From NCBI GenBank assembly GCA_045606105.1, contig JAZURI010000003.1:129647-153646 (forward strand): DNA of 24,000 nucleotides. Direction: 5' to 3'. Position numbers and translations under genes: made by a program. The notes beneath the pieces were generated by a model. The model made no database searches and had not been told where the DNA came from. It was given only the letters and a program-made list of their open reading frames with translations. Positions 10,509-13,425 of this stretch are shown here, in pieces. Origin of the DNA: Spirochaetia bacterium (GTDB lineage Bacteria > Spirochaetota > Spirochaetia > CADAEX01). Numbering within the stretch: position 1 is the first letter of the stretch; every line of letters begins with the position of its first letter.

Positions 10509-10531
10509 TCTGATAATTAAGGATTATCCGG

Positions 10532-10561
10532 TCCCGCGGTTCAAGCCGCGGGATTTTTTTT
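10532..10561 (+). terminator. rho-independent terminator after secF
   Basis: 8-bp GC-rich stem: tcccgcgg (10532-10539) pairs with ccgcggga (10546-10553). The loop is 6 nt and an 8-T run follows (10554-10561). Confidence 0.85.
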
Positions 10562-10601: not shown

Positions 10602-10675
10602 GGGCCTATAGCTCAGTTGGTTAGAGCCCTCGACTCATAATCGAGTGGTCCCTGGTTCAAGTCCATGTGGGCCCA
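10602..10675 (+). tRNA. tRNA with CAU anticodon, either elongator Met or more likely Ile2 (lysidine-modified)
   Basis: 74-nt cloverleaf. The acceptor stem pairs GGGCCTA with TGGGCCC. The D-arm is 'AGCTCAGTTGGTTAGAGC'. The anticodon loop is CT-CAT-AA with CAT at 10636-10638. The T-arm is 'GGTTCAAGTCC'. No CCA is encoded. C4-G69 and C5-G68 match known TilS determinants of tRNA-Ile2, so I lean towards Ile2. It has no initiator features. Confidence 0.9.
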
Positions 10676-10677
10676 GA

Positions 10678-10708
10678 AATCTCCTGTCTTGCAGGAGATT
10701 TTTTTTTT
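10678..10708 (+). terminator. rho-independent terminator after the tRNA
   Basis: 9-bp stem: aatctcctg (10678-10686) pairs with caggagatt (10692-10700). The loop is 5 nt and the T-run extends to 10708. Confidence 0.85.
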
Positions 10709-10730
10709 GCTCTTTTGCGGTGAGTTGCGT

Positions 10731-10741
10731 GGGGACAGAGG
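10731..10741 (+). repeat. GGGGACAGAGG motif copy (intergenic, upstream of RAYT)
   Basis: Exact 11-mer in the context TTGCGTGGGGACAGAGGATATTGC. Confidence 0.95.
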
Positions 10742-10762
10742 ATATTGCTTGGTGATTGCTTG

Positions 10763-10773
10763 GGGGACAGAGA
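10763..10773 (+). repeat. motif variant GGGGACAGAGA (intergenic, upstream of RAYT)
   Basis: Context is TTGCTTGGGGGACAGAGATATTTG. It equals the upstream copy with one G deleted. A 9-nt direct repeat ATTGCTTGG (10744-10752 and 10755-10763) links the two copies. Confidence 0.85.
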
Positions 10774-10826: not shown

Positions 10827-11300
10827 ATGGGAAGAAGAAACAGAATCACCGTTGATGGCGGAACCTACCATATTATTAACAAAATTAATGAAGAAAAGAT
10901 GCTTCTTGAATCGTCATTGATCAAGACTTTGTTCATGAAAATAATCAAAGAGGCAAAATTTCGTAAAAAATTTAGGTTTAGTCTCAAAAATATTACAATT
11001 ATGGACAATCATATTCATATGATTATAAAAATGGAACAAGGAGAAAGCTTATCCAGGTTGATGCAGTGGATTTTTTCTGTCTTTGCCCTTCGTTATAATC
11101 GAAGATTTAACAGAAAAGGTCATCTTTGGATTGATAGATTCAAAAGTAAGCTTATAGAAACTTTATCTGCATATAGGGCAATATTTGAATATATCTGTAA
11201 TAATCCGGTTAAGGCAGGTATTGTAAAAAGTGCTGAGGATTATATTTTTGGGTTCTGGCAATTGAGAGGCAACAGCGAATTTCAGGCACTTTTTACTTGA
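10827..11300 (+). CDS. rayT: REP-associated tyrosine transposase (RAYT; IS200/IS605-like Y1 HUH transposase family)
   Basis: 157 aa counted from the ATG at 10827, with RBS aaggag at 10815-10820. It has 'YHI' near the N-terminus, the HUH motif in 'DNHIHMII', 'YNRRFNRKGHLWIDRF' and the Tyr-bearing 'FEYICNNPVKAGIV'. The gene is much more AT-rich than its neighbours. Confidence 0.8.
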   Translation: MGRRNRITVDGGTYHIINKINEEKMLLESSLIKTLFMKIIKEAKFRKKFRFSLKNITIMDNHIHMIIKMEQGESLSRLMQWIFSVFALRYNRRFNRKGHLWIDRFKSKLIETLSAYRAIFEYICNNPVKAGIVKSAEDYIFGFWQLRGNSEFQALFT

Positions 11301-11331: not shown

Positions 11332-12123
11332 ATGAACCGATTGGAGCTTCTTGATAAGGTTTATAATGAATATCATCGGGAGGAGTACATATATCCTGAT
11401 CCTCTGTCCCCGGTATTATCCTATAAAAACGCCGATGACAGGGAAGTTGCAGCTATTATTGCATCTTCTCTTGCTTTAGGACGGGTTGATCTTATCCTTA
11501 AAGCGGTAAATTCTGTGCTTTTACCACTCGGCTCTCATCCGGCTTCTGAACTTGATTCTCTCTCGGTGTCGGATTTGAGAGAAATTTATCATGATTTCGT
11601 TTATAGATTTTTTAAAACCGATGAAATAACCGGTTTTTTATATGCAATTAAGGTGATACGCGGGGACAGAGGAAGCCTCCAAGCCCTTTTTACCACAAAT
11701 TACACCCAAGGAAAGGGCATTACAAGCGGTATTACAGCTCTCAGCAATGAAATTGCCAGGATTTCAGAGGGTAAATCGGCTATGTTGCTCCCATCTCCTG
11801 AAAAAGGCAGTGCCTGTAAAAGGGTTAATCTTTTTCTTAGATGGATGGTCCGGCATGATAACATTGATCCGGGAGGATGGTCTGATATAAATACCTGTGA
11901 TTTGTTGGTTCCGGTTGATACCCATATGTATGATATTGCAAAACGTCTCAGGTTTACATCCAGAAAGACTGCAGATTTCAAAACAGCAGTTGAAATTACT
12001 GCCGGTTTTGCAGAAATTGTTCCTGAAGACCCTGTAAAATATGATTTTTCACTTACAAGATTGGGAATACATCCTGATCTTGATAAGGAAATATTTAAAA
12101 ATCTTGATTTTAAAGGAGAATAG
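11332..12123 (+). CDS. DUF2400/TIGR02757-family protein (uncharacterised; HhH-glycosylase-like fold by recollection)
   Basis: 263 aa. 'DP...Y....DRE.AA.IAS.LA.GRV', '[12 protein letters not shown]' and 'L..P.DTH' match my memory of the TIGR02757 family. I cannot confirm this without an HMM search. Confidence 0.6.
11401..11411 (-). repeat. GGGGACAGAGG motif copy, inverted (in DUF2400 CDS, read as P-L-S-P)
   Basis: Exact reverse complement CCTCTGTCCCC. It lies 101 nt past the RAYT stop. Codons are CCT CTG TCC CCg. Confidence 0.95.
11662..11672 (+). repeat. GGGGACAGAGG motif copy (in DUF2400 CDS, read as G-D-R-G)
   Basis: Exact 11-mer. Codons are GGG GAC AGA GGa. Confidence 0.95.
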
Positions 12124-12124
12124 C

Positions 12125-12280
12125 ATGAAGTATATCTGTAATCTTTGCGGCTATATTTACGATCCTGCAACAGGAGATCCTGACAGTGGAGTCAAAGCTG
12201 GAACAAAATGGGAAAATGTTCCTGCCGATTGGTGCTGTCCTGTTTGCGCAGCATCAAAAGACCAGTTCAGCCCGGCATAA
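12125..12280 (+). CDS. rubredoxin
   Basis: 51 aa from the internal Met '[14 protein letters not shown]...[14 protein letters not shown]'. It has two CxxC pairs and the conserved 'W..VP.DW.CP.C' motif. The ATG begins 1 nt after the upstream stop. Confidence 0.92.
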
Positions 12281-12292
12281 GCTGCTTTAACC

Positions 12293-12327
12293 GGGGACAG
12301 AGGTTTATCTGATAAACCTCTGTCCCC
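12293..12327. repeat. perfect 35-bp palindrome built from two inverted motif copies (possible terminator or REPIN/DUS-pair-like element)
   Basis: GGGGACAGAGGTTTATC-T-GATAAACCTCTGTCCCC, giving 17-nt arms around one central base. It starts 13 nt after the rubredoxin stop. No T-run follows. Confidence 0.9.
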
Positions 12328-12352: not shown

Positions 12353-12381
12353 TTGACATTCCCATTCCTTTACTCTATTAT
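12353..12381 (+). promoter_or_regulatory. sigma70-type promoter for the gap-pgk-tpiA-secG cluster
   Basis: TTGACA (12353-12358), a 17-nt spacer, then TATTAT (12376-12381). RBS aggaga is at 12405-12410 and the gap ATG is at 12418. Confidence 0.55.
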
Positions 12382-12387
12382 ATATAA

Positions 12388-13425
<1,038 letters not shown>

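Follow-up and report, generated by a model that had tools for sequence, protein, structure and literature searches.

A 35-bp palindrome lies between a rubredoxin gene and the gap (GAPDH) gene in the window, by which we mean the whole 24,000-nt stretch of DNA analysed here (C3:129647-153646 of the 1.46-Mb, 11-contig genome G000). What keeps it there: the ending of a transcript, the marking of DNA for uptake, or the transposase-like gene about 1 kb upstream? The preliminary description took it for an inverted pair of a word dispersed through the genome, standing where a terminator is expected, and likened the arrangement to the inverted DUS pairs of Neisseria and to REPIN doublets. We examined the fold of the palindrome, its alleles in related strains, the history of the site and the distribution of the word in this and other genomes.

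Structure and position of the palindrome

The repeat finder placed the palindrome at 12293-12327, with arms of 17 nt each (12293-12309 and 12311-12327) that are 100% complementary and 1 nt apart. Its sequence is GGGGACAGAGGTTTATC / T / GATAAACCTCTGTCCCC, and this sequence and the inverted-repeat listing agree on the perfect arms around a 1-nt centre that had been described before. The listing, the RNA and DNA folds and the conserved alleles together identify it as a head-to-head doublet of the RAYT (REP-associated tyrosine transposase) word around a central T. By word search and allele comparison, the left arm (12293-12303, plus strand) is the word GGGGACAGAGG, whose 10-nt core GGGGACAGAG is invariant in two species, and the right arm (12317-12327) is a minus-strand copy of it. 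The inner part (12304-12316) varies between strains and species. As the preliminary description stated, the word stands on the minus strand at only two sites in the window, 11401 and 12317.

The palindrome is predicted to fold into 16 pairs with a 3-nt loop, at -28.5 kcal/mol (z -7.5) as RNA and at -17.6 to -17.8 kcal/mol (z -8 to -9) as single-stranded DNA of either strand. Immediately 3' of the stem comes ATGCCTTT, with no T-run. The absence of a U-tract noted earlier thus holds, and the terminator scan makes no call here; the two canonical terminators that it calls near the palindrome lie at 10530-10555 and 10675-10703. An Rfam search at the hairpin gave nothing above threshold.

The distances given earlier to the neighbouring features also proved right. 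The palindrome begins 13 nt past the stop codon (TAA at 12278-12280) of the rubredoxin gene (12125-12280, plus strand; 51 aa; Pfam PF00301, E 1.3e-23) and ends 26 nt before the -35 box of a promoter-like site of gap (12353-12381, plus strand; TTGACA, 17 nt, TATTAT; 11/12 matches in the promoter scan). The gap gene follows at 12418-13425 on the plus strand, identified by gene and domain annotation and by comparison with relatives. With about 33 copies of the core in 110 kb, we estimate that about 0.07 head-to-head pairs within 30 nt would be expected; since six more complementary bases extend beyond the core pair, a chance origin of the palindrome is negligible.

The word and the RAYT gene

The word is not dispersed genome-wide, as had been supposed. 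G000 holds 32 copies, 29 of which are confined to 110 kb of contig C3 (84.8-195.4 kb) around one RAYT gene, with a density peak at 125-142 kb; 8 of the 11 contigs have no copy at all. In the window there are 15 copies with at most one mismatch, against 0.37 expected. Uptake signals of the DUS/USS type would be expected at roughly one copy per kb genome-wide, and 32 copies in 1.46 Mb fall short of this.

The RAYT gene (a Y1 HUH transposase of 157 aa, single-copy; 10827-11300, plus strand) was identified by profile and structure matches. Its product matches Pfam Y1_Tnp (E 3.8e-15, residues 10-126) and NCBIfam REP_Tyr_transpos (NF047646; 85.9 bits against a cut-off of 80, residues 4-141), and its closest solved structure is that of E. 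coli TnpA-REP (4ER8, E 1.2e-5), with the HUH and Y-x-x-x-NPV (catalytic Tyr) motifs aligned. A domain search of the 157-aa protein found no C-terminal HTH extension, a trait of TnpA-REP subclass 2.1. Two direct copies of the word lie 5' of the gene (10731-10773, plus strand), one exact at 10731 and one with a single mismatch at 10763. The gene is flanked by a 13-nt inverted pair, at 10730-10743 (the left terminal inverted repeat) and 11399-11411. On the right, the inverted word (11401-11411, minus strand) lies within DPLSP codons of the DUF2400 gene and, by word search and repeat comparison, closes the RAYT unit as its right terminal inverted repeat; in G001 these conserved codons already agree with the antisense word at 9 of 11 bases. 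The sister species (G005) lacks this right repeat.

Genes of the TIRYT (RAYT-like) kind have on either side terminal inverted repeats with GGGGWSAS in common, further copies of which occur as singles, dimers or groups (PMC3733652; PMC6006769), and GGGGACAG fits this end motif, GGGG-W-S-A-S. Among nine genomes of the genus, the word-rich trio (G000, G001 and G005) are exactly the three with a RAYT gene; most congeners have 0-2 copies of the word. G021, from another family, has both the word and the gene. In G001 the words cluster around five RAYT gene copies and come in two variants, ending in G or C. The family relatives G011 and G014 show the order word (GGGGACGGAGG), gene, inverted word, with arms of 14-21 nt lying 780-880 nt apart in the same inward orientation as the doublet. 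The palindrome shares word-inward orientation and arm length with the gene-flanking repeats, with only 7-14 nt between its arms.

Most of the other copies are coding. The word was found inside many genes unrelated to gap, and the intragenic copies of G000 occupy all three reading frames (GDRG, RGQR and GTE), 22 of 25 on the sense strand; over three genomes the ratio of sense to antisense was 73:14. Purine-rich coding strands alone predict a sense bias of 2.5-3:1 for this purine-rich word, and the observed bias appears to be largely this effect. A sense copy within DUF2400 (11662-11672, plus strand) arose by substitution without an indel, the codons LRQYG being replaced by RGDRG at unchanged length. 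In the spirochaete of another family, one gene carries five tandem 18-nt coding repeats, each with the word (L190:4799-4884; G021:C22). A polarity flip of the word near C3:153 kb led us to suspect a KOPS/dif-like polar word converging on the terminus. We rejected this candidate, since GC skew is positive throughout 35-231 kb with no change at the flip, the words do not converge around the gene copies in G001, and polarity tracks gene strand. Near 35 kb of the same contig, the skew passes from about zero or negative to steadily positive, which may mark a replication origin or terminus.

The RAYT cassettes themselves showed a common placement. All those examined, in G000 (window 10675-10730), in the G005 species (L192) and in the five copies of G001 (L018, L026, L029, L031 and L033), start right after the hairpin-plus-T-run terminator of the upstream gene. 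In the window this is the canonical terminator (hairpin and T10) behind tRNA-Met, found by tRNA and terminator scans (10602-10703, plus strand). The sequences suggest that RAYT units insert behind intrinsic terminators. Two of the G001 units (L029:1329-1992 and L031 in reverse, on contigs C4 and C6) are 98% identical over 665 nt, with sharp edges 20 nt outside the outward-facing word on the left and 9 nt past the inverted word on the right, which indicates that the entire unit was recently transposed or duplicated. In one conspecific strain, 12 nt, GAGTTGCGTGGG, are duplicated in tandem across the 5' border of the word that precedes the RAYT gene (L176:1083-1106, about window 10718-10733).

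Conservation and variation of the hairpin

An exact-protein look-up recovered the locus in seven further contigs, making eight with G000, from two species. Four are conspecific (L176, L177, L195 and L196), and full comparison of two of these gave 97.8-99.2% identity to the window; three belong to the G005 species (L192-L194) and are 77% identical to it. The word doublet occupied the same position in all eight contigs, in four alleles. Allele A1 (G000 and L176) has the core followed by GTTTATC, T, GATAAAC and the inverted core, and A1' (L196) differs from it in having a central A. Allele A2 (L177 and L195) has GTTT and AAAC inside the cores, around a 14-nt loop, CCCCTTCCCCAAGC. Allele A3, of the sister species (L192-L194), has CACA, TGAAAT and TGTG between the cores. 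Every allele folds strongly as RNA and as DNA. Look-up of further strains by exact GAPDH, DUF2400 and RAYT proteins yielded no new alleles.

Both 10-nt cores were the same in every allele (20/20 bases), and between the species the intergenic DNA flanking the hairpin shares only 33-42% identity. At arm positions 11-14 the species of the window has GTTT paired with AAAC and its sister species CACA paired with TGTG, so that all four differ and full complementarity is kept; within them, 12304-12306 and 12314-12316 (TTT/AAA) pair in all conspecific strains and covary with ACA/TGT in the sister species. At the apex (12307-12313), strains that share 98-99% identity have ATCTGAT, ATCAGAT or, in two strains, the 14-nt loop, and this block was replaced between strains whose surrounding 170 nt are identical. 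The invariant cores and the covarying extension suggest that sequence and pairing are both constrained, with the loop either free or actively turned over. Selection for the stem would here be read from one compensatory event in two species, and concerted copying from arm to arm would look alike.

No donor template for either apex or loop was found in G000. The idea that the inner segments derive from the flanks of the RAYT ends was not retained: A1 gave no signal and A2 only a weak likeness to the inner flank of the left RAYT repeat, which 3% of shuffles equalled in score, uncorrected for four tests. Twenty consecutive bases of the palindrome centre, GAGGTTTATCTGATAAACCT, recur in the coding sequence of a PemK/MazF-like protein of a congener (L015:1501-1528; G004:C51:4826-4853), a match that is unlikely by chance.

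History of the site

In six congeners the gene order is secF, tRNA-Met, DUF2400, gap, with the -35 box of gap overlapping the end of DUF2400, and in none of the six was a hairpin found between DUF2400 and the gap promoter. The DUF2400 gene (11332-12123 in the window, plus strand) is ancestral at the site, as judged by its domain match and the comparison with relatives. Against these congeners, G000 and its sister species share two insertions: the RAYT cassette, directly past the tRNA terminator, and the rubredoxin gene with the hairpin, between DUF2400 and the gap promoter. The second is specific to this lineage. The expectation that a terminator belongs at the position of the palindrome is therefore not borne out: six relatives run DUF2400 straight into the gap promoter without a hairpin, and a terminator here is no ancestral requirement. 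Elsewhere, just one distant doublet locus had a rubredoxin gene nearby.

Two further features of the interval stood out. The 65-nt stretch that runs from the gap promoter up to the ATG (12353-12417) is 100% identical in the sister species (L192), and the neighbouring genes are 72-82% identical; in the alignment this is a sign of either strong constraint or recent exchange with its end near the hairpin. Assembly breaks fall in or beside the rubredoxin-hairpin-gap interval at the start of G005:C69, the end of G005:C111 and the ends of L193 and L198, and the G005 reference genome therefore lacks the hairpin.

Doublets in other genomes

We searched for doublets as the 10-nt core and its inverted copy with 1-30 nt between them. 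The palindrome is the sole such close inverted pair in G000, and none was present in 400 further genomes sampled from the class. Inverted pairs are thus not enriched behind genes, an outcome that the preliminary description had itself named as refuting its reading; across 401 genomes of the class the palindrome stands alone. No doublets of the relatives' word, GGGACGGAGG, turned up in the family either.

In large collections the exact doublet occurred at 71 genome loci and 70 metagenome loci from many phyla, among them multi-copy families in a Bryobacterales MAG (SJ613) and an Opitutaceae MAG. On a contig of a Rectinema-like spirochaete the arrangement seen here recurs, with a Y1 gene, 11 words over 10.6 kb and a single doublet where two genes converge. 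A Y1 gene lay within the retrieved stretch at 2 of the 141 doublet loci from other organisms, a count that speaks against the reading of the palindrome as a RAYT hairpin. Most of the intergenic doublets elsewhere belong to longer hairpins. Outside the multi-copy families, with which the Rectinema-like contigs are counted here, some of the single hits world-wide may be chance terminator stems.

Comparison with terminators of the genome

We surveyed hairpins at the 365 gene ends of G000 with at least 40 nt of non-coding DNA downstream, a set to which rubredoxin does not belong. The strongest reached -24.3 kcal/mol, compared to -28.5 kcal/mol for the rubredoxin hairpin; it is a 39-nt near-perfect palindromic hairpin between convergent genes (G000:C9:9567-9645). 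About half of the surveyed hairpins at or below -12 kcal/mol had at least 5 U in the 8 nt that follow, and in others the U-run was absorbed into an A/U-extended stem. Terminators of the canonical hairpin-plus-U type are common in this genome and carry 6-10 U. Behind the palindrome the tail of the sister species reads GTACCATC, and the U-tract is absent in both species, which makes efficient intrinsic termination unlikely. A protective 3' stem-loop or a partial block to transcription would be a plausible effect of the hairpin.

Discussion

By its sequence, the palindrome belongs to a known class, the TIRYT/RAYT repeats. It is best read as two terminal inverted repeats of the adjacent RAYT/TIRYT gene with no gene between them, the local equivalent of a REPIN doublet. 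We believe it is probably, though far from surely, a hairpin that the RAYT protein recognises, with a secondary effect at the mRNA end. Characterised relatives of RAYT bind hairpins. The hairpin would be maintained as the target of RAYT, a single-strand-DNA enzyme, with recognition on either strand when the DNA is single-stranded, and the enzyme or hairpin repair would act at the apex or the foot of the stem. The DUF2400-rubredoxin transcript would, as a secondary consequence, end in, or pass through, a very stable stem-loop, which should protect the mRNA 3' end and damp read-through into gap, though it is no canonical intrinsic terminator. The hairpin probably shields the mRNA 3' end as well. 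Single words, which cannot form a hairpin, far outnumber the doublet, and the hairpin may therefore not be the form that the enzyme needs.

Could selection on the RNA alone account for the palindrome? It would then be a U-tract-poor intrinsic terminator or insulator that separates DUF2400-rubredoxin from the gap promoter, with the RAYT word as the raw material of its stem. Its place 13 nt past a stop and 26 nt ahead of a -35 box suits this, as do the very stable RNA hairpin, a stem kept by compensatory changes, and the intergenic doublets of other organisms, 26 of which lie between convergent and 4 between divergent genes, about a third with T or A runs. We nevertheless consider it unlikely, though worth keeping in view, since neither ATGCCTTT here nor GTACCATC in the sister species offers the 6-10 U of the genome's other terminators, six relatives tolerate DUF2400 directly before the gap promoter, and selection acting only on RNA would not hold both 10-nt cores invariant. 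That invariance also weighs against a relic without function, left behind by a former RAYT unit or by snap-back repair, tolerated between genes and persisting by shared ancestry. The palindrome is a singleton with no sign of spread, its apex is as unstable as that of a perfect palindrome would be, and the inner part of A2 weakly resembles the inner flank of the left RAYT repeat (3% of shuffles equal). A neutral relic should, however, decay at the rate of its flanks, and these are down to 33-42% identity while the cores are kept at 20/20 and four stem positions are compensatory; we regard this explanation as unlikely.

We hold it quite doubtful that the doublet is the smallest active RAYT unit, two ends around an exchangeable "cargo" of a few bases. 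The apex swaps and the 12-nt duplication beside another word would then be footprints of RAYT that cuts and rejoins single-stranded DNA at its word, and this activity would also introduce the word into nearby genes with no indels; if this were true, the hairpin would record, in nature, a RAYT reaction that otherwise goes unobserved. A signal pair of the DNA-uptake type (DUS/USS-like), or an operator of a gap regulator, is highly improbable. The palindrome does lie just upstream of a promoter, and inverted DUS pairs are found behind genes in Neisseria. Yet 29 of the 32 copies in 1.46 Mb fall within 110 kb, most congeners lack the word, and the arms consist of the word that goes with the adjacent RAYT gene, a word also present in many genes that have nothing to do with gap.

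These comparisons separate the two analogies of the preliminary description. The one with REPINs stands, the palindrome being an inverted pair of a word with a RAYT gene 1 kb upstream, and it is apt because that gene is itself flanked by the word; the one with DUS falls with the confinement of 29 of 32 copies to 110 kb. With the inverted DUS pairs of Neisseria the palindrome shares its make-up, a short non-palindromic word repeated in inverted orientation behind a gene, but its word is not genome-wide and is tied to a transposase-like gene and not to competence. It shares with intrinsic terminators a stable stem-loop a few bases past a stop and before the next promoter; in contrast to them it has no U-tract, its stem is far longer and stronger than the genome's own, and its sequence is fixed by the RAYT word.

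The REPIN-RAYT systems of Pseudomonas and enterobacteria (Bertels and Rainey 2011, PMC3337134; 4ER8) have in common with this locus two inverted units that form one hairpin, an intergenic position behind a gene, and a single-copy, vertically inherited RAYT in the genome. Unlike theirs, an imperfect palindrome with a 5' GTAG tag, the unit here is not self-complementary and no such tag precedes it; there is no dispersed population of doublets (one in G000, none in 400 others), and the doublet adjoins the RAYT gene. That the RAYT characterised so far recognises a GTAG-tagged REP hairpin counts against the reading of the palindrome as a RAYT hairpin. The likeness to TIRtrons (Di Nocera, De Gregorio and Rocco 2013, PMC3733652; TnpA-REP subclass 2.1 of Quentin et al. 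2018, PMC6006769) lies in a Y1 gene between inverted GGGG[AT][CG]A[CG] repeats, in copies that occur as singles, dimers or groups, and in doublet arms of 14-17 nt oriented as in the gene-flanking repeats. The locus differs from them in its short protein (157 aa), in which no C-terminal HTH domain was detected, in copies that lie within about 110 kb of the gene, mostly in coding sequences and written by substitution, and in having one dimer only, conserved at one site.

What is new here is a hairpin kept at one site in eight contigs of two species, with fixed cores, compensatory arms and a replaced apex. What sets the locus apart is that its single doublet has stayed beside the gene in both species, the cores unchanged, the adjoining positions covarying and the apex hypervariable. 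The result corrects the readings of the palindrome as an uptake signal or as a genome-wide terminator motif. RAYT/TIRYT genes are very common, and their role in the cell and the form of DNA on which they act are known chiefly from E. coli and Pseudomonas. This locus is a compact case, with one gene and one conserved hairpin of its word, and it offers clear substrates for binding and cleavage.
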